From: a virus
Lineage: Duplodnaviria > Heunggongvirae > Uroviricota > Caudoviricetes
Virus record (IMG/VR): IMGVR_UViG_2737471853_000005
Span: 1 to 7,166 of that record
Reading direction: 5' to 3' (one strand)
DNA: 7,166 nt
This document shows, piece by piece, positions 1-7,166 of the stretch (within the stretch, counting starts at the first letter, position 1; every line of letters starts with the position of its first letter). The notes below the pieces were generated by a model that was not told the DNA's origin, did not search any database, and worked only from the letters and a program-made list of their open reading frames with translations. The position numbers and the translations under genes were made by a program.

Positions 1-162
1 TTCCTGCTGCTGTTCCTGCTCAGCAGGATTTTCTGATTCATCGAGCATCGCATAGCCTTTTTTGATGAGCTCGCGACCGTGCTGTTCCAGAGTTTCCAGC
101 GGAAGCCCCTCAGTAACGACGGTACCGCCGAAATAAATCGGTTTGAGTGCGATCAGTTTCAT
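1..162 (-). CDS. Partial CDS (N-terminus present, C-terminus beyond window edge); hypothetical phage head-associated protein immediately downstream of the major capsid gene
   Basis: ATG at 162-160 preceded by GGTGGG SD-like motif (172-167 on minus strand); my own translation is open for 54 codons to the window edge (MKLIALKPIYFGGTVVTEGLPLETLEQHGRELIKKGYAMLDESENPAEQEQQQE...). Absent from the supplied ORF track, presumably because it has no stop. Function inferred only from position (head-completion or connector genes usually follow the capsid gene). Confidence 0.5.
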   Translation of the reverse strand, partial: MKLIALKPIYFGGTVVTEGLPLETLEQHGRELIKKGYAMLDESENPAEQEQQQE

Positions 163-178
163 TTTCCCACCTGTGAAA

Positions 179-194
179 GCGGCCCGAAGGCCGC
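179..194 (-). terminator. GC-rich stem-loop between capsid gene stop and next gene; on the operon mRNA it reads GCGGCC-UUCG-GGCCGC (6-bp stem, UUCG tetraloop); possible attenuator or RNA-stabilising hairpin
   Basis: Perfect inverted repeat gcggcc/ggccgc with 4-nt loop at 179-194. On the plus strand it is followed by a T5 run (197-201), so it looks like an intrinsic terminator for antisense transcription; on the minus strand it is followed only by UUUCAC, so at most a partial terminator. Confidence 0.45.
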
Positions 195-202
195 AGTTTT
201 TA

Positions 203-1414
203 TCAGCTACCTGAGCCAGTGCTGAAAGAGCCATACACGAACGCTTCAGGGCGTTTGACGGCCAGCGCCAGACGTTCTTCGCAACGGATGGTGATCATGT
301 TTTTCTCGAAGTCGTCGGCGTTCTCCGTGGAGATAACCACGTTCGCATCTTCGCGGTCGAAGATTTGCGCGCCAGCGTTAAATACACCGGTCAGGAATTT
401 ACCCTGGAAGGCTGCCGCTTCCGTTGCAACAACTGGCAGGCCCCACAGAGTCGGACCAGTCAGCGCCGCAGGGTTCGCCAGAATGTAACGACCCAGGCTG
501 TCTTTGGTCAGCTCGATCCGCGCCCAGTCAATGAAGTGAAGAACATGACCAGATGCCGGGAAGCGTGCCAGCTGTGCCTGCAACATTGCCAGTCGCAGAT
601 CGTCAATCCCGCTCTGCTGTTCGACAGTGAACGCCGGATTGAACGCTGACGCCTGAGGAACGATGCCGTGCAGATGAACGCCGGTACCGTCACCGAAGAG
701 AATTTCCTGCTCTTCTGCATACTTCAGCCCGTAGCGCATTTCGGCATCAACGGTGGACTGCAACTGTGCGAAGTCATCCAGGATCTGCTTTGAGGCTTTG
801 AACAGGTGGGCAATGGTGCTGACGCCAGTGATTTTCGGCGTGAACTCAATTTCGCTGTATGGTTTCTGCGTATTTTCAGGAACCACTTTCGCGTTATTGG
901 TAAAGCCTGTCTGCTGCACCCAGAAAATAGCTGAGGATGACGTACGGCCTGGAGCAATCAGATCGCGGATGAACAGGCGCTGTTTCGGCGCCGTATCAAT
1001 ACCCGGCAGGCGCTGTGGCTCCACAACACCATCAGGCACATCCACCGAAGTCAGGGCAGCCTTAACCGGGATGCTGATGCGCTTACCGCCTTCCACGCTG
1101 GAAGCAAAGGTTTTCAGGGCTTCAGCGGAGATCACCTGGTGGCCAACGGACTCGACAACCTGTTTCGCGTTTGCCAGCGGCATCTGGGCAACATGTTGCT
1201 CCAGTTCGCCCATTGCGGCCTTCAGGGTTTTTTCAGCTTCACGCAGCGCATTGAACTCAGAAGCCATTTTATCAACGGCAGCTTTTGTTTCTTCTGACAG
1301 CCTGCCTGACTTCTGCGCCTCTTTGAGTGCGTCTTCTGCTTTCGCGTTGAATTTGCCGGTTGCCTCTTCAATGCTGGCAGTGACTTTTTTCAGAATTTCG
1401 TTTACTTCAGACAT
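203..1414 (-). CDS. Major capsid protein, HK97 family (with N-terminal delta/scaffolding domain)
   Basis: 403-aa ORF; ATG at 1414-1412 with AAGGA SD overlapping the upstream stop; C-terminus ...KNMITIRCEERLALAVKRPEAFVYGSFSTGSGS closely resembles HK97 gp5 (...KNMLTILCEERLALAHYRPTAIIKGTFSSGS, recalled from memory); N-terminal ~110 aa Ala/Glu/Lys-rich and coiled-coil-like, as in the gp5 delta domain; stop TGA at 205-203. Confidence 0.95.
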   Translation of the reverse strand: MSEVNEILKKVTASIEEATGKFNAKAEDALKEAQKSGRLSEETKAAVDKMASEFNALREAEKTLKAAMGELEQHVAQMPLANAKQVVESVGHQVISAEALKTFASSVEGGKRISIPVKAALTSVDVPDGVVEPQRLPGIDTAPKQRLFIRDLIAPGRTSSSAIFWVQQTGFTNNAKVVPENTQKPYSEIEFTPKITGVSTIAHLFKASKQILDDFAQLQSTVDAEMRYGLKYAEEQEILFGDGTGVHLHGIVPQASAFNPAFTVEQQSGIDDLRLAMLQAQLARFPASGHVLHFIDWARIELTKDSLGRYILANPAALTGPTLWGLPVVATEAAAFQGKFLTGVFNAGAQIFDREDANVVISTENADDFEKNMITIRCEERLALAVKRPEAFVYGSFSTGSGS

Positions 1415-1423
1415 AAAGGGTCC

Positions 1424-2272
1424 TTATTTGACTAACGCCGCAAGAGCGCTTTCAAGTGAATTGAGGGTTTCAGGTTTGATATCTTCGGCAGCGCCCGGCG
1501 TACCGTCGTTGGTGGTGACAGCGCCAGGCATGCCACCGGATAAGGCTTTAATGAGTTTTCTGCGCTCAGAGCGCGGGGTGTTGGTTTTAGCCAGCAGCGC
1601 ATCAAGTTTTCGAAGCGCGGCCGCGGGTGATTCATCGCCATCACTGACTGCATCAGCAGAAAGCAGGCTGTCTGCCAGTCCCTTCGCCACAGCGTCACTG
1701 CCACCGATATAACTCTCGGCGTCCATCAGTTTCTGAACGGCTGCCATATCAAGGCCGGAACGCGCCGCGTAGATGTCTGCCATAGCGGTATCGAACGGCT
1801 CAAGAGACTGTGCCAGTTCCGCAAAGTCATGGCGGTTACCCATCGCGTAGACCCAGCAGTTGTGGATCATCAGGAAGGCACCACGGCCGATCTGAATTTC
1901 ATCCCCGGCCATCGCAATGACCGAGGCGGCGCTGGCGGCAATACCGAGCACCTTCACAGTCACACGGCCTTCGTATTCACGCAGAAGGTTGTAGATGGCC
2001 AGGCCTTCGAACATGTCCCCGCCAGGGGAGTTAATATTGACCGTGACGTCGGCGCCATTCATCGCCCGAAGCGCACCGGCGATACGTTTGGCTGTTACGC
2101 CTTCACCCCAGTAGTCCTGCCCGATCACATCAAAAACAGAAATACTGTTGTCGTCGGTGGCCGCAGCTTTGATCCCGCCGTCCCAGCGGTCCAGTGCGGA
2201 CGGTAATGTTTCACAGGTAACGCGCGCGCAGGGGCGACCCGCCGGTGCTACCGGAAGTTGTTTTTTGCTCAT
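1424..2272 (-). CDS. Prohead (head maturation) serine protease, ClpP-like (peptidase S14 fold) with ~90-aa C-terminal extension
   Basis: 282-aa ORF; motifs NINSPGGDMFEGLAIYN, GIAASAAS (catalytic Ser context) and LMIHNCW (His) match ClpP hallmarks INSPGG / GQAASMG / MIHQP; sits between portal and capsid genes as in HK97-like head modules; ATG 2272-2270, stop TAA 1426-1424. Confidence 0.9.
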   Translation of the reverse strand: MSKKQLPVAPAGRPCARVTCETLPSALDRWDGGIKAAATDDNSISVFDVIGQDYWGEGVTAKRIAGALRAMNGADVTVNINSPGGDMFEGLAIYNLLREYEGRVTVKVLGIAASAASVIAMAGDEIQIGRGAFLMIHNCWVYAMGNRHDFAELAQSLEPFDTAMADIYAARSGLDMAAVQKLMDAESYIGGSDAVAKGLADSLLSADAVSDGDESPAAALRKLDALLAKTNTPRSERRKLIKALSGGMPGAVTTNDGTPGAAEDIKPETLNSLESALAALVK

Positions 2273-2284
2273 CAGGAAGTGCTC

Positions 2285-3589
2285 CTAAGCGGCCTGTTTC
2301 AGCGGAGATTGTTCAAAGGAAATATCGGGGAATACGTGGTTATGCAGTTCTCTCAGGGCCAGAGCCTGAACAGCAGGATTGCTGCTTTCGAGATTTTTCA
2401 GTTGCGTCAGGTTGAGCTGAACGGTGTAAATGTCACCCCCTTCAATCGGTGGCATATTCTCAAGACGGCGCACGTCATTGCGGGACATCCACCCATTCTG
2501 GAGCGCGCTGGTATAGTACGCAGCACGGCCCGCGCTGTCGGCGCGCAGCAGACCTTCTACAGAGAACTCCGCGAACACCTCATCATCGCTGTCCAGCAGG
2601 CACCGTCCTATTTCCTGTTCTATGTTCACCAACAGGGGTCGCAGGGTGTGCGTCAGGAACTGGAGGTTCATGCCCTCCAGACTGGATGCCCAGCTGCTTT
2701 GCTTCGTGGTGTGACCGACCATGAAAGGCGGAACGCGAAACCAGCGACAGATTTCCTCAATACTGAAAGAGCGGCTTTCCAGCATCTGGGCGTCTTCGGG
2801 ATTCATGGTGACGCCCTGGTACTTCAATCCGCCTTCAAGCACCATGATTTTCCCGGCGTTTTTTGAACCGGTAAATGCAGCCATGTAGCTGCGAAGTCTT
2901 TCACGTTGTTCGTGATCCAGCGCACCCTCAGCGGAGAGAAAACCTGAACTCTGAAGCCCCTGTTCAAAAATCTTCGCGGCAGACTCCTCAACCGCCATTG
3001 CAGAACCGATCACATCCCGCCCTGTTTTCATCGGCATCATGCCGCAAACACCGTCAAGACCGAACCCGCGAATGTGCATGATGTTTTTGACGGGAATGAC
3101 GCGCTCGTTACCGTTTTCAGTGTATTTGTATTCCAGCGCCCCGGTCGTGAGACGTTTAACCACCATGTTCTGCGGCAGCAAAGGCACCAGAGAAACCAGG
3201 CGGTTTGCGATGAATTTCTTCTCAATGAAGGCGTTCCCGCGCAGGCAAATACTGGCGACCACCATCAACATAAATCGTGATGGTGTCATTTCTGAATTGG
3301 GTCGGCGGCACAGTATCGAATAGGCCGGATGATCGGTTGCCGCTTTACGCGAACCGTCAGGCTGTCGAACGTATATTTTCAGCGGAAGGGTTGAAATAGA
3401 CTCGCTTAACAGTCTTACACATGCCCACACAGCCGATAGCTGGATGGCTTTATCGGCCGTTACCACCTTTCCGCTGCTGCTGGTACCAAACCATTCCTCC
3501 CAGAATGTGCCGGTAGTCAGGCTGATAGGCACACCAAGCCAGTTGAGCAGAGCACTTTTAACCCTGCCTGGCCGTTTGTTTTTTTTCAT
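2285..3589 (-). CDS. Portal protein (HK97-family phage portal)
   Basis: 434-aa ORF immediately downstream of terminase large subunit, with start ATG sharing one base with the terminase stop (TGATG at 3591-3587); size and position typical of portal proteins; sequence pattern consistent with HK97-type portals as I recall them. Confidence 0.88.
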   Translation of the reverse strand: MKKNKRPGRVKSALLNWLGVPISLTTGTFWEEWFGTSSSGKVVTADKAIQLSAVWACVRLLSESISTLPLKIYVRQPDGSRKAATDHPAYSILCRRPNSEMTPSRFMLMVVASICLRGNAFIEKKFIANRLVSLVPLLPQNMVVKRLTTGALEYKYTENGNERVIPVKNIMHIRGFGLDGVCGMMPMKTGRDVIGSAMAVEESAAKIFEQGLQSSGFLSAEGALDHEQRERLRSYMAAFTGSKNAGKIMVLEGGLKYQGVTMNPEDAQMLESRSFSIEEICRWFRVPPFMVGHTTKQSSWASSLEGMNLQFLTHTLRPLLVNIEQEIGRCLLDSDDEVFAEFSVEGLLRADSAGRAAYYTSALQNGWMSRNDVRRLENMPPIEGGDIYTVQLNLTQLKNLESSNPAVQALALRELHNHVFPDISFEQSPLKQAA

Positions 3590-5325
3590 CAGAAACCTAC
3601 CATGATGGGATTATTGAAGAATCCGGAGAGATCCTGCTGGTCGTTGCCACCGTTAACCAGAACGCGGCTCATTGCTGTGAACAAGGCCGCAGGGCCATCA
3701 ATCTTGGCCTCTGGTGTGGACTTATTCGGGAAAATGTTCTCGTTCCGGTCCGGTTTGACGGTTACGTTAGACATCATCCAGTTCATCACCGGGTGATCGC
3801 TGTGATGGAAGCGGCCACCGTATACCAGCGCTTCGACCTCTTTCATCGCCTCAGAGAAATTGCGAACCGTCTGCGGCACTTCCACCAGCGGCAATCCTTC
3901 TTCTGCCAGCGCAAGGCTGAACTGCGTCGCACTCCACGGATCGAAGCCAATTTCTTTCAGGCTCTCACCAGCAACCCACAACTGTAGCTCTTCCTTAATC
4001 TGAGCATGGTCGATTACATCACCGTCGGTAAGGATCAGCTTGTCCATCCCGGCCCACTTACGATAGAGCTCTGCCATCTGGCGTGAACATTTCTCAAGGC
4101 GTCCTTCCGGTAGCCAGAATTTGAAATCCGCATGAACGTGGCCATCTGGCGCGCGCCAGACTTTAGCGGCCGCACAGATATCAATTTTGTTTGACAGGTC
4201 AACGCCCACCCAGGAGGGATAGGTTTTAAGTTCGTGCTGCGGGGCGATAAACTCGCATTTCTCCCATTTCATCATGTCCATCCAAGCTGACTCAGCGGTA
4301 ACCCAGATATTCATGTGCTTAGTGAAAAAGTTGATTCTGGCCGAAACCTGCTCTTTCGCCTTTTTAGCCAGGCGGCGCAGGTCATCCCAGCGCTTACAGA
4401 TACCCAGCCCCGGATTCGCCTTCTGCCAGACTTTTTCATCAAAGGGATCGTCACCTTCATCTAAGGTGTAGATGATGGCAAAAAACGTATCGTCTTTAAC
4501 CAGGCCGCGCAGGACCTTGATTGCGTAATCGCGTAGTTCGTAACAGATACCTTCTTTGTTGAAGCCGGCGGTGGTGATACCGAAAAGCAGCGATTGCAGG
4601 CGCGCGCCGGTGGCCGTCTCCAGAACGTCCCAAACGTCACGGGTTTTGTGAGCATGCAGCTCGTCGACGATGGCACAGTGGATGTTCAGGCCGTCGAGGT
4701 TGTTCGCATCTGATGATAAAGGCTCGAATTTGGAGGCCGTTTGCTCCTGGTAGATAGCGAGCTTGTTGAATTCGAAGATCCGCCCAAGAGTGGCTTTCGC
4801 CTTCTTGACCATATTCTTCGCGTCTTCAAAAACAATTCGTGCCTGGTCTCGGGTGGTTGCAGCGGAATAAACCTCCGCACCGCCCTCGCCGTCGGCGCCA
4901 GCCATATAAAGCCCCACGCCAGAGCAAAGCGTTGATTTAGCATTTTTACGAGCCACCTCAACATCTGCTGTCCGGAAGCGCCGAACCATTACTGGACGAC
5001 CGCTGCCGTCGTTACGCAAAACGGTTTCTCCCGTTTCTTCGTTAACCAGCGGGATCACGAAACCAAAAATATTAATCAGGATGAAAACGTGCCAGTCCAT
5101 CAGCTCAATAGGCTGCCCTGCCAGTGCGCCTTTTACGTGAGGTACAAAATTATAGAAATTCAGAATGTGCTGCGCGCGCGGTTCACTGAAGAAAATACCG
5201 CGCTCTTCGCCGTGTGCCAGATCGTCAAGAAAACGCTGGCAGGCAAGGCGCACATACTCACAGGCAATAATCTCCCCAGCAACCACCCTCTCGGCGTAGC
5301 GGATGCCTTCTGCAACCTTCGCCAT
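3589..5325 (-). CDS. terL: Terminase large subunit (ATPase/nuclease)
   Basis: 578-aa ORF; located between terminase small subunit and portal; start ATG overlaps terS stop (TAATG at 5327-5323) with GAGGGA SD inside the terS 3' end; length and overall sequence character typical of terminase large subunits. Confidence 0.9.
   Translation of the reverse strand: MAKVAEGIRYAERVVAGEIIACEYVRLACQRFLDDLAHGEERGIFFSEPRAQHILNFYNFVPHVKGALAGQPIELMDWHVFILINIFGFVIPLVNEETGETVLRNDGSGRPVMVRRFRTADVEVARKNAKSTLCSGVGLYMAGADGEGGAEVYSAATTRDQARIVFEDAKNMVKKAKATLGRIFEFNKLAIYQEQTASKFEPLSSDANNLDGLNIHCAIVDELHAHKTRDVWDVLETATGARLQSLLFGITTAGFNKEGICYELRDYAIKVLRGLVKDDTFFAIIYTLDEGDDPFDEKVWQKANPGLGICKRWDDLRRLAKKAKEQVSARINFFTKHMNIWVTAESAWMDMMKWEKCEFIAPQHELKTYPSWVGVDLSNKIDICAAAKVWRAPDGHVHADFKFWLPEGRLEKCSRQMAELYRKWAGMDKLILTDGDVIDHAQIKEELQLWVAGESLKEIGFDPWSATQFSLALAEEGLPLVEVPQTVRNFSEAMKEVEALVYGGRFHHSDHPVMNWMMSNVTVKPDRNENIFPNKSTPEAKIDGPAALFTAMSRVLVNGGNDQQDLSGFFNNPIMVGF
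3883..3890 (-). other. Chi octamer (5'-GCTGGTGG-3' on minus strand)
   Basis: Exact ccaccagc on plus strand at 3883-3890. Functional only if the host uses the E. coli-type RecBCD Chi sequence. Confidence 0.5.
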
Positions 5326-5798
5326 TAATCCCTCGCTTTCATAAACTCGGCCAGCGGGTCAACCGCATCAGGACCTTTTGCATTCACTTTCGTGCGGCTG
5401 GCTGGCGTCATGCCGAACTCACCAAGCATGGCGCGCAGACGTTTCCAGGCATCAGCTTTCATGATGGCGGCGGGGTGAGCCTTGATCAGCACATCCCCGC
5501 TCTGCGTTTCGGTCCGGTAGGTATAGCCCTCAACTTCAAGCGTGTCGCAGTGATGCCGGTATTCGGTATAAGCCTCAACCAGCAGTTCAAGGGCTCTGGC
5601 GTCCAGCTGAGACATCACACCGATAGCATCAAGCTCGTCGGCCATCCGTTTAAACCAGTATTTCCCCTGCTTGTCGAAATGCTTCGGCGTTGGGGGTACC
5701 CCTGAAGGGGGTTTTGGTTCGTTCTCATTGATCGGGCGTTTAGATGGGTTCCCCCTCACCAAACGTAGATGGGTCGGGGTTTTCGGTGGTCCAGACAT
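5325..5798 (-). CDS. terS: Terminase small subunit, P27 family
   Basis: 157-aa ORF; N-terminus MSGPPKTPTHLRLVRGNPSKRPINENEPKPP and C-terminal FGMTPASR match the conserved pattern of P27-family small terminases (RGNPGKRP.NENEP...FGLTPASR); AGGAG SD 9 nt upstream of ATG 5798-5796. Confidence 0.88.
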   Translation of the reverse strand: MSGPPKTPTHLRLVRGNPSKRPINENEPKPPSGVPPTPKHFDKQGKYWFKRMADELDAIGVMSQLDARALELLVEAYTEYRHHCDTLEVEGYTYRTETQSGDVLIKAHPAAIMKADAWKRLRAMLGEFGMTPASRTKVNAKGPDAVDPLAEFMKARD

Positions 5799-5955
5799 AA
5801 TCGAAAACTCCTATTAATCATCGAGTGGGGGACCCCATAAAAAAGTTTTCTAACCTGCGGCGATGTGAAAAGAGGTTGGGCGGCGGTCCTTTGGCGCGTC
5901 GTTCCTGAACTTTCAACCCGCCCTCCCCCTCGGTCGATTCAAATGAGAATTGATG
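5799..5955. other. Candidate cos / packaging-initiation region (intergenic, between HNH endonuclease and terminase small subunit)
   Basis: Only sizeable non-coding gap in the operon (157 bp), at the position where HK97-like phages carry cos. Contains GGGCGGCGGTCCT (5878-5890), resembling the lambda cosN cohesive-end 12-mer GGGCGGCGACCT, a polypurine/polypyrimidine GC-rich tract (5919-5934), and an inverted repeat at its edge. Cut site not determinable from sequence. Confidence 0.45.
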
Positions 5956-5966
5956 TCATTTGAGTC
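5936..5966. repeat. Inverted repeat / hairpin (gattcaaatga ... tcatttgagtc, 9-nt loop) overlapping the HNH stop codon
   Basis: tcaaatga (5939-5946) is the exact reverse complement of tcatttga (5956-5963); flanking bases extend the stem to ~11 bp with one wobble. Not followed by a U-tract on either strand. Confidence 0.6.
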
Positions 5967-6306
5967 TTTCGACCGCTGTCTTCGCCCTGTGGCAAGGCTT
6001 GCAGAGGCTTTCGAGGTTGGACAGGTCATCGGTCCCCCCATTTGCTTTGGCGGTGATGTGGTCCACCGTCTCAGCGGGTGTATACCTTCCATTTCGCAGG
6101 CATTCCTGACAAAGGTGTTTATCTCTGTCGAGAACGATTGGGCGCAGCCTGTCCCACTTACTGCCATAGCCGCGCTGATGTCGGCTCTGTCCCCGCTGAT
6201 GCTGCTGCCAGCCTTCGTTAAGGTGCTTGGGACAATAGCCTGAGCGATCTGTGGTTGTGCCGGGGCAGCCACGCTTGCGGCATGCCCTTGGTATCAACGC
6301 AGGCAT
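5956..6306 (-). CDS. HNH endonuclease (terminase-associated, cos-cleavage accessory type)
   Basis: C-terminal CQECLRNGRYTPAETVDHITAKANGGTDDLSNLESLCKPCHRAKT is a classic HNH motif (CxxC...H...N...CxxCH). Located directly upstream of cos/terS, as for HK97 gp74-like HNH proteins. I place the start at ATG 6306-6304 (GGAGG SD 8 nt upstream) rather than the GTG at 6321 used by the ORF track. Confidence 0.9.
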   Translation of the reverse strand: MPALIPRACRKRGCPGTTTDRSGYCPKHLNEGWQQHQRGQSRHQRGYGSKWDRLRPIVLDRDKHLCQECLRNGRYTPAETVDHITAKANGGTDDLSNLESLCKPCHRAKTAVERLK

Positions 6307-6310
6307 CAGG

Positions 6311-6715
6311 CTAACCTCCACGCCCTGCGGCGTTCTGTGCGTGGCGCTGAGTCAGGGTGACGTTCAACCGGTTCAACATCTGCATGGTCCACCAGCGAGT
6401 AGCACGGATAGACCACTGCGCCGCTATAGGCATCACCCACTGCATAATCAGCGCGGTTAAACTGGCGTTCTTCGAAGCAACAATGCCAAGCGATGTTTCA
6501 TGGCGACGCAACTGCACTCCGTCAGGTACTACGGCGGCAGGTTGAGAACCGTCGTCGATAACCACCACCAGCGACCCGGCTGGCAGATGCCTCAGATGCT
6601 GTTCGAGTGAACGTTTTAAAACGTCTGCGCGCTGGTGTGTCGTTATTGCAATCCCGATCCGCGATGAAATTGCGCAGACTGGTGCATACGGGACACCATC
6701 AATAATGACCTGCAT
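6311..6715 (-). CDS. Hypothetical 134-aa protein; N-terminal ~95 aa resembles the start of a family-2 (GT-A) glycosyltransferase, followed by a Trp-rich non-conserved tail; possibly a truncated or remnant gene
   Basis: ATG 6715-6713 with GGAG SD 5 nt upstream; IAITTHQRADVLKRSLEQHL...VVVIDDGSQ...LGIVASKNASL parallels GT2 hallmarks (IIPTYNR..LL.R.L.S...Q......IVVDDGS.D......G.S.ARN.G) but lacks the downstream DxD region and is far shorter than a full GT2 enzyme; stop TAG 6313-6311 lies between the SD and ATG of the HNH gene. Assignment is by eye only. Confidence 0.45.
   Translation of the reverse strand: MQVIIDGVPYAPVCAISSRIGIAITTHQRADVLKRSLEQHLRHLPAGSLVVVIDDGSQPAAVVPDGVQLRRHETSLGIVASKNASLTALIMQWVMPIAAQWSIRATRWWTMQMLNRLNVTLTQRHAQNAAGRGG
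6389..6396 (-). other. Chi octamer (5'-GCTGGTGG-3' on minus strand)
   Basis: Exact ccaccagc on plus strand at 6389-6396; same orientation as the Chi at 3883-3890. Confidence 0.5.
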
Positions 6716-6728
6716 AAATTCTCCAGCA

Positions 6729-6971
6729 TCAGTCCGTCCAGCGTGTCACAGCAATTTTCAACGTTCCTGGATTTGCGTTCCAGACCCATACCTTCAGCGG
6801 CGGATAAATTACCATTCTGTCCCTGAGGTAGTCACCGGCATTTATATCCGGGGATACGTCAGATTCCGCAAAACTGATTGCATAGCTGCCCAGAACCGTT
6901 ACCAGCGCGCTATTCGTACCATCCGTTATTTGAACTGGCTCACTACCGATTGTCATTCTTTCTGTTGCCAT
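6729..6971 (-). CDS. Hypothetical 80-aa protein of unknown function
   Basis: ATG 6971-6969 preceded by GGGGGAG SD; stop TGA 6731-6729, 13 nt upstream of the next ATG; co-directional and tightly spaced with flanking genes; no transmembrane segment or recognisable motif. Confidence 0.45.
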   Translation of the reverse strand: MATERMTIGSEPVQITDGTNSALVTVLGSYAISFAESDVSPDINAGDYLRDRMVIYPPLKVWVWNANPGTLKIAVTRWTD

Positions 6972-6980
6972 GTGCTCCCC

Positions 6981-7166
6981 CTACGCCAGTACGTATTCAG
7001 GTGTTGATGGATTGATGATAAATTTCTGCGCAGCTTCAGGTATGAGGCCATAGATAACATCAATGTGATAACCGTCCTTTAGGGTCGGCTCCTTTATCAC
7101 ATTTCCGGCCTCGTCATATTCACCGTCACTGTTATACAGAACGCCCCGCACAGAAAACTGAATAGA
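6981..7166 (-). CDS. Partial CDS (C-terminal 61 aa; N-terminus beyond window edge), hypothetical protein
   Basis: My own translation of the minus strand is open from the window edge to TAG at 6983-6981 (...SIQFSVRGVLYNSDGEYDEAGNVIKEPTLKDGYHIDVIYGLIPEAAQKFIINPSTPEYVLA*); stop lies 9 nt upstream of the 80-aa ORF start; lower GC than the structural genes by eye. Confidence 0.4.
   Translation of the reverse strand, partial: SIQFSVRGVLYNSDGEYDEAGNVIKEPTLKDGYHIDVIYGLIPEAAQKFIINPSTPEYVLA

Follow-up and report, generated by a model that had tools for sequence, protein, structure and literature searches.

Two hypothetical genes upstream of an HK97-type packaging module belong to a conserved, mobile fibre cassette and probably serve its fibre

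The window analysed here is a stretch of 7,166 nucleotides from a virus of the Caudoviricetes (IMG/VR record IMGVR_UViG_2737471853_000005, positions 1 to 7,166), and two small ORFs, one complete and one partial, lie at its end. Both belong to a conserved, mobile fibre cassette, the first gene of which is past the window end. We read them as the second and third genes of a portable, late-transcribed spike-fibre accessory cassette of lambdoid prophages in which they would act as helper and adaptor, and we put the probability of this reading at about 0.55. Because the linkage to a virion-type spike-fibre gene is strict, an accessory for adsorption is favoured over a defence function, and the two small proteins are probably the helper and the anchor of the fibre rather than defence cargo. 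The genes are named below after their homologues gp74, gp75, and gp76 in coliphage HK639. The window contains the following features.

203-1414, minus strand: major capsid protein
1424-2272, minus strand: ClpP-type prohead protease
2285-3589, minus strand: portal
3589-5325, minus strand: TerL
5325-5798, minus strand: TerS (Pfam Terminase_4, E = 1.3e-24)
5956-6321, minus strand: HNH endonuclease (Pfam HNH, E = 1.6e-15)
6311-6715, minus strand: GT2-like ORF of 134 aa, a neighbour outside the cassette
6729-6971, minus strand: 80-aa gp76-like gene, complete (PHROG 4772)
6972-6980, minus strand: 9-nt spacer with most of the purine-rich ribosome-binding-site motif of the 80-aa gene
6981-7166, minus strand: 3' part of the gp75-like gene, 61 codons plus TAG (PHROG 18574)

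Every gene in the window is on the minus strand. The HNH endonuclease is the first gene of an HK97-type packaging module (HNH, TerS, TerL) and is also the downstream edge of a variable region. A first-pass annotation of this DNA had described two co-directional ORFs of 80 aa and at least 61 aa, and both are present on the minus strand with correct coordinates. The frame of the partial ORF is open through the window end and its start lies past it. The upstream extension proposed in that annotation is provided by relatives, in which the full gene encodes 94 aa and is preceded by the fibre gene. A Shine-Dalgarno-like GGGGGAG (6975-6981) is located 3 nt ahead of the ATG of the 80-aa ORF and has its first base in common with the TAG stop of the upstream gp75-like gene. 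The 80-aa ORF is separated from its neighbours by gaps of 9 and 13 nt, and this tight spacing suggests co-translation of the gp75-like and gp76-like genes in one operon.

Both ORFs are under purifying selection. The pairwise dN/dS for gp76 was 0.12-0.20 in close pairs, with a median of 0.45 across all pairs, of which the distant ones have largely saturated synonymous sites; for gp75 the median was 0.21. In a public assembly collection, 213 indexed blocks contain the exact 80-aa protein, and its entries from Escherichia coli and the Enterobacter cloacae complex give it no name beyond "hypothetical protein". Both small proteins are acidic. Neither has a signal peptide, nor a transmembrane segment as judged by the Kyte-Doolittle 19-residue mean (maxima of 1.07 and 0.77), in agreement with the first-pass annotation. 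The lower GC content that it had seen was likewise borne out, with 47.9% in the two-ORF block vs 54.3% in the TerS-to-capsid genes and GC3 values of 0.47-0.49 vs 0.60-0.63. In the prophage of E. coli ECCRA-119 (NZ_CP029242.1; L002, 5800-7480) the gp75 and gp76 homologues are unannotated in RefSeq, which annotates instead an opposite-strand ORF of 91 aa across gp76. The fibre gene of this prophage is in two pieces, of 122 and 231 aa, and is probably a pseudogene.

The first-pass annotation could match neither ORF to a family, and here profile searches corrected it. The 80-aa ORF matches PHROG 4772 (E = 2.7e-22, residues 1-75 of 80) and the partial ORF matches PHROG 18574 (E = 4.3e-23, profile positions 38-99), two families that carry no function label in PHROGs. 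The 61 residues encoded in the window are identical to the C terminus of HK639 gp75, and the 80-aa ORF has 71% identity to HK639 gp76. The gp75 family comprises more than 600 clusters, whereas the gp76 family is small: clustering of 1.84 billion proteins at 50% identity leaves it with ~30 clusters, all of whose members have 75-84 residues. No match to gp75 or gp76 was found in Pfam at E values up to 1, nor to either ORF in NCBIfam and PADLOC scans. Sequence searches of the PDB with single sequences and family profiles returned nothing meaningful for either small ORF, and for the gp75 family no solved-structure match. The first-pass annotation had also raised the prospect of homology to conserved lysis or structural proteins; the ORFs lack direct homology to a characterised structural protein. 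We found no paper on either small family, and the literature matches for HK639 concern other genes.

Six contigs that encode the identical 80-aa protein have 93-94% identity to all or most of the window. Common to all six are the lysis genes, a 341-359-aa protein, the 94-aa gene, the 80-aa gene, HNH, and TerS; between the 80-aa gene and HNH they hold either a 485-aa GT2 glycosyltransferase (GT) gene and a 196-aa gene or a remnant of these. A late terminator and the lysis genes are upstream of the gene for the 341-359-aa protein, the stop of which is overlapped by the 94-aa gene. The lysis set comprises a GH19 endolysin and two proteins of the holin family, together with two short ORFs of 89 and 64 aa that overlap each other and occupy the place of the Rz-like spanins of HK639. 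The first-pass annotation was right that the two ORFs of the window are not lysis genes, as a complete lysis set is present upstream in the relatives and both products are acidic and soluble. It placed them where a lysis cassette or late-region cargo is normally carried; the lysis cassette is not displaced by them but lies 1.5-3.3 kb further upstream in the relatives than the two ORFs.

The same trio of genes is found in HK639 (gp74-75-76) and in the ECCRA-119 prophage. Among cultured phages, close relatives of gp75 and gp76 occur only in HK639, where they are the final two genes before the right genome end and are annotated only as hypothetical. They are direct homologues of the two ORFs, in the same order and at the same place just upstream of cos and the terminase genes. 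HK639 differs from the window in its head type and in having neither HNH nor GT genes downstream of gp76. A diverged form of the trio (301, 89, and 83 aa) is present in Pantoea prophages, and more trios were found upstream of other terminase types. Different carriers pair the fibre-gp75-gp76 cassette with several types of head and several of tail. Some of them are defective prophages, as seen from the split fibre gene of ECCRA-119 and the broken terminases of L014/L015. The genomic linkage of the three genes is a direct observation. Conservation of the block in all relatives, an outcome considered in the first-pass annotation, is seen in the six closest relatives but not in others, from which the block is absent.

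The first gene of the cassette encodes, in the closest relatives and in HK639, a protein of ~345 aa with a GTA head spike fibre domain. Its product in the relatives matches the NCBIfam family NF048003 (GTA_spike_fiber) with 45-47 bits against a cut-off of 36, a score that belongs to the upstream gene of those relatives, the gene itself being outside the window. Alignment of the product to Rcc01080, the head spike fibre of RcGTA, is weak. A strong alignment (E = 5e-14) spans ~290 residues and pairs them with residues 166-455 of the Sf11 distal tail protein gp17, which form a C-terminal appendage (PDB 9OCC). The function of this appendage is given as unknown by the authors of the structure (PMC12724387). 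Homologues are present in ~40 E. coli siphophages, including "minor tail proteins" of Kagunavirus. In Sf11, unlike the cassette, the domain is fused to the distal tail protein ring of the tail tip, and there is no gp75- or gp76-like neighbour.

Comparison of 16 enteric and Pantoea fibres revealed conservation of the first ~110 and last ~90 residues, and in copies of the E. coli type the ends are identical. The central ~190 residues occur in this set as at least five unrelated alleles. Such a mosaic, with constant ends and a variable centre, is typical of receptor-binding proteins. The enteric fibres begin with a conserved N-terminal peptide, MKGLFIPGV, and the fibres of L010 and L242 carry SLGLS and ISLALS at their N termini. 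An isolated pair of genes in Erwinia phage Snitter (MZ333132.1; L263, 3974-5174) encodes a 308-aa protein with the fibre domain and an 87-aa beta-rich protein, on the strand opposite to a surrounding kinase gene and other early-type genes. The 87-aa protein has no significant match to the three small-partner profiles.

The head spike of RcGTA (PDB 6TB9) consists of an Rcc01079 base and an Rcc01080 fibre (PMC7296036, PMC5026251). The fibre binds capsular polysaccharide, and its first ten residues are anchored in a pentamer of the 84-aa jellyroll protein Rcc01079 on the capsid pentons (PMC7296036, PMC10218006), with each base pentamer holding the N-terminal peptide of one fibre (PMC7296036). The spike genes form a mobile locus that is present in unrelated prophages (PMC5026251). 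The cassette is similar to this system in four respects: a fibre with an NF048003 domain; a small partner of ~80 aa that is, in the case of gp76, predicted to be an all-beta jellyroll; a short N-terminal peptide and flexible linker before a lectin-like domain; and a compact, horizontally mobile locus apart from the core structural genes. It differs in its gene order (fibre first, small genes after), in its obligatory extra partner of the gp75 family, which R. capsulatus lacks and which the RcGTA papers do not mention, and in the fact that gp76 has no sequence homology to Rcc01079. The N-terminal peptide of the cassette fibres is M-K/R-G-L-F/Y-I-P-G rather than the I/L-G repeat of RcGTA. The RcGTA spike sits on the capsid and has polysaccharide-dependent adsorption as its own role; for the cassette fibre, attachment to a head is putative. 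The species-representative genome of Rhodobacter capsulatus SP108 (L019-L021) contains several paralogous base-plus-fibre loci; its bases of 84 and 88 aa have only ~33% identity, consistent with the prophage-borne copies of SB1003.

ORFs were extracted from all fetched loci and scored with local profiles. Among 91 gp75-like genes whose upstream ORF could be assessed, 86 are immediately 3' of a fibre-like gene, and the two genes overlap by 1-4 nt, usually 4 nt. In three of the five exceptions the fibre and gp75-like genes are separated by an additional ORF, which in at least L016 and L017 encodes an HNH_3 endonuclease. This homing-endonuclease gene (5417-6004) is inserted exactly between the two genes in two of three otherwise collinear environmental phage contigs (L016 and L017 vs L018). 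An NF048003 domain is encoded upstream of the gp75-like gene in enterics, Pantoea, environmental siphophages, a Malikia prophage, and T4-like cyanophages. The environmental siphophages carry the fibre-gp75 pair between capsid and connector genes. The fibre of cyanophage S-TIM54, with 1026 aa and four copies of the domain, is annotated as "virion structural protein" and that of cyanophage S-WAM2 as "tail protein". In these cyanophage records the gp75-like neighbour bears no such label, a difference that fits a chaperone rather than a structural subunit.

Small acidic proteins encoded directly 3' of a fibre gene, and translationally coupled to it, are also known as lambda Tfa and Mu U' (Pfam Caudo_TAP) and T4 gp38. 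In L255 (418-1034) a tail fibre gene is followed by a Caudo_TAP chaperone gene in the slot of gp75 and then by a gp76-like gene just before the terminase genes; from this order gp75 occupies the position of a chaperone. However, gp75 has no sequence or fold similarity to Caudo_TAP (PF02413) and, unlike those chaperones, is highly conserved though the fibre centre varies. Given the chaperone slot in the gene order, the translational coupling, and the occurrence with head- and tail-annotated fibres alike, the gp75-like protein would most simply be a dedicated assembly partner of the fibre.

Of 71 genomic loci found with the RcGTA fibre as seed, only 7 contain a gp75-like gene, and the fibre domain therefore has no general need of gp75. 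No Rcc01079-like ORF was detected within 7 kb in 80 gp75-seeded loci. We considered gp75 as a stand-in for the Rcc01079 base and rejected this possibility. The two proteins are nearly mutually exclusive, yet L242 (2962-4635) encodes a portal, an Rcc01079-like base (87 aa), a fibre (N terminus ISLALSSVL), and a gp75-like fragment, the last with a weak match (E = 8e-4). It is the sole locus observed with both types of small partner, and it argues that gp75 is an additional fibre partner rather than a replacement for the base.

The AF2 models of both small proteins are confident, and gp76 is predicted to be a small all-beta protein with a double-stranded beta-helix (jellyroll) fold. A cupin enzyme is ruled out, as the 80-aa protein contains no His and no Cys for metal-binding His/Glu motifs. 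Resemblance of motifs by eye made gp76 a candidate homologue of Rcc01079, the sequence of which was taken from R. capsulatus and confirmed against PDB 6TB9. This candidate was also rejected: hhalign gave a probability of 0.1-0.2% with small profiles and then with enriched ones (45 and 78 sequences), and Rcc01079 was not among the top structural matches of the gp76 model. The two proteins share only size and general fold class.

A gp76-like gene follows the gp75-like gene in 26 enterobacterial and Pantoea loci and in L256 and L259. The gap between the two is ~3-10 nt, except in L100, where they overlap, and in L097, where it is ~60 nt. The genes that come after the gp76-like gene vary (GT, HNH, TerS, cos, or others). 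In one set of loci (L001, L002, L004-L009, and L090-L107), the gp75 proteins are ~99% identical and the fibre ends nearly identical, and the gp76 subtype tracks the downstream terminase, portal, and capsid type. Fibre alleles shuffle freely while the gp76 subtype follows the downstream head module. The nucleotide homology between the window and HK639 breaks inside gp76 (window ~6856), and gp76 residues 1-25 do not differ among the three E. coli-type subtypes compared (window, HK639, and ECCRA-119). As a sign of a virion-specific adaptor this tracking is only suggestive, because physical linkage could account for it. The gp76-like protein would most simply be a virion adaptor by analogy with the RcGTA base, an analogy that fails the test for homology and draws on a generic fold.

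These results can be combined in a model of the cassette. The first gene would provide a four-part fibre: a short peptide conserved at the N terminus, then a linker, then a hypervariable lectin-like domain of the kind found in the RcGTA head spike fibre, and lastly a conserved C-terminal segment. The gp75-like protein would be translated in step with the fibre through the 1-4-nt overlap of their genes and is most likely a fibre-specific assembly chaperone, or else a subunit that sits on the fibre's conserved part. The gp76-like protein, a putative non-enzymatic jellyroll, is most likely an adaptor that docks the fibre onto the particle, taking the role that the 84-aa jellyroll base Rcc01079 has in the RcGTA head spike. 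The assembled fibre may bind surface polysaccharide reversibly and so make adsorption faster or broader.

The main counter-argument to docking is the association of the cassette with several unrelated head and tail types, which is awkward for a protein that needs a specific virion surface. The many combinations are compatible both with an adaptor that can be tuned and with a product that stays out of the virion. The objection is softened by the RcGTA spike locus, which is itself mobile among unrelated prophages (PMC5026251). A more specific form of the docking model, which we hold only tentatively and consider unlikely as it stands, is a self-contained plug-in head spike of enterobacterial lambdoid phages in which a gp76 pentamer on the capsid vertices holds a swappable lectin fibre folded by gp75. 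The C-terminal half of gp76 would then be tuned to each capsid type, and the pentamer would grip the N-terminal peptide of the fibre.

It is also conceivable, though we think it doubtful, that the two small proteins have unrelated jobs, the gp75-like protein being a fibre chaperone and the gp76-like protein a head-assembly or capsid accessory of the packaging/head module that is merely adjacent. Some loci fit this explanation, as a gp76-like gene is found without fibre or gp75 genes in L257/258 (L257, 1953-3674), where it is flanked by a Mu-type portal and an S49 prohead protease and no fibre is close by, and in L253, ahead of an Ig-domain protein and TerS. The tracking of the head module by the gp76 subtype and the break in homology inside gp76 point the same way. 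However, the gp76-like gene follows the gp75-like gene in the 26 loci and in L256 and L259 whatever gene comes next, and the identity of its first 25 residues in the window, HK639, and ECCRA-119 also speaks against unrelated jobs.

Only residues 1-90 of the 134-aa GT2-like ORF match the 482-position glycosyltransferase family PHROG 1579. Window positions 1-6453 and 6462-7166 align to L006 on both sides of L006 10511-12138, and the GT2-like ORF is the remnant of this 1.6-kb deletion, which joins the N terminus of the 485-aa GT2 glycosyltransferase, out of frame, to the end of the 196-aa gene. What remains in frame of the latter is its tail, an ORF of 44 aa (6306-6440, minus strand) that overlaps the start of HNH. 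Full-length GT and 196-aa genes are present together with the trio in L005, L006, and L090. The pair is found without the trio in the E. coli GDSC2BY4G prophage and with a J-tip-like protein in Salmonella phage FSL SP-016, and it is absent from HK639. It is an independent, optional unit. The three-gene block with the GT2-like ORF proposed in the first-pass annotation is thereby ruled out, and the real unit is fibre-gp75-gp76. In L004 (7392-8476) there is a second, apparently disrupted GT copy upstream of the fibre gene, besides the downstream remnant.

The same site in other HK97-like phages contains a KilA-N gene and a small ORF (mEp235), other genes (Fraca), or only the GT pair (GDSC2BY4G), and it is a hot spot of variable content among related HK97-like phages. 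In L259 (1760-4516) the stretch from the lysis genes to the trio holds a gene of the Acb2/Tad1-hairpin type (anti-CBASS-like) and, on the opposite strand, a block that includes a Cse1-like gene; the hot spot is therefore a site that genuine counter-defence cargo does occupy. PADLOC gave no match for gp74, gp75, gp76, or the 196-aa protein, and the GT scored no better than a non-significant E of 0.05. On the coding strand, a consensus scan that may miss weak signals detected neither a promoter nor a terminator inside the cassette or beside it (window 5800-7166; relative L009), and the only strong terminator is ahead of the holin gene. Independent transcription, by which a moron is recognised, is thus not indicated by the consensus scan. 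Because a promoter and terminator of its own were not found, the cassette looks like a late-transcribed part of the late operon rather than an autonomous moron. The cargo site of the first-pass annotation is confirmed as a place of variable content, but its suggested use here for defence or anti-defence is not.

A moron whose products stay outside the virion, acting in superinfection exclusion, receptor masking by a released lectin, anti-defence, or surface modification with the GTs, is in our judgement improbable. This explanation would account for the position in a variable hot spot between lysis and packaging genes, the GC content unlike the rest of the window, and the sporadic distribution over many virion types. 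It would also agree with the GT genes that adjoin the cassette in some prophages, the Acb2/Tad1-like cargo at the same hot spot in one related prophage, and the isolated fibre-like pair of Snitter among non-structural genes. Nevertheless, besides the negative PADLOC result and the missing transcription signals, the small proteins have neither a signal peptide nor a membrane segment. Every characterised relative of the fibre domain, namely the RcGTA head spike and the Sf11 distal tail protein, is part of a virion, and the fibre-gp75 pair is found inside the head and tail modules of other phages. The trio is intact where the GTs are deleted, and the GTs occur without the trio.

A lysis or lysis-regulating role is very hard to credit, as its only support is the position downstream of the lysis cassette, whereas a complete lysis set is already present upstream in the relatives and the two acidic, soluble proteins have no membrane segment and no lysis-family match in Pfam or PHROGs. 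Chance ORFs or decaying pseudogenes might be suspected from the defective prophages among the carriers (ECCRA-119 and L014/L015) but are effectively refuted by the purifying selection on both ORFs, the identical proteins in many genomes, the confident AF2 models, and the presence of both genes in the viable phage HK639.

The finding does not speak for a novel system of defence or anti-defence, and the cassette is not a new kind of system but one of a kind already known, a receptor-binding protein with helper genes. What it does provide is a testable hypothesis for two "hypothetical" ORFs, and since cultured HK639 carries all three genes, the model can be tested directly. The gp75 family, which is large and has no Pfam entry, is usable as a marker for annotating accessory receptor-binding cassettes because of its near-universal linkage to fibres across lambdoid prophages, siphophages, and cyanophages. 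If the plug-in head spike were true, it would give coliphages of this kind their first described head-borne adhesin, one that had converged on the RcGTA spike with small proteins unrelated to those of RcGTA. If the proposed helper and adaptor roles are true, many Escherichia and Enterobacter prophages would carry an exchangeable polysaccharide-binding fibre with an allele-swapping centre, with a bearing on host-range prediction and phage engineering.
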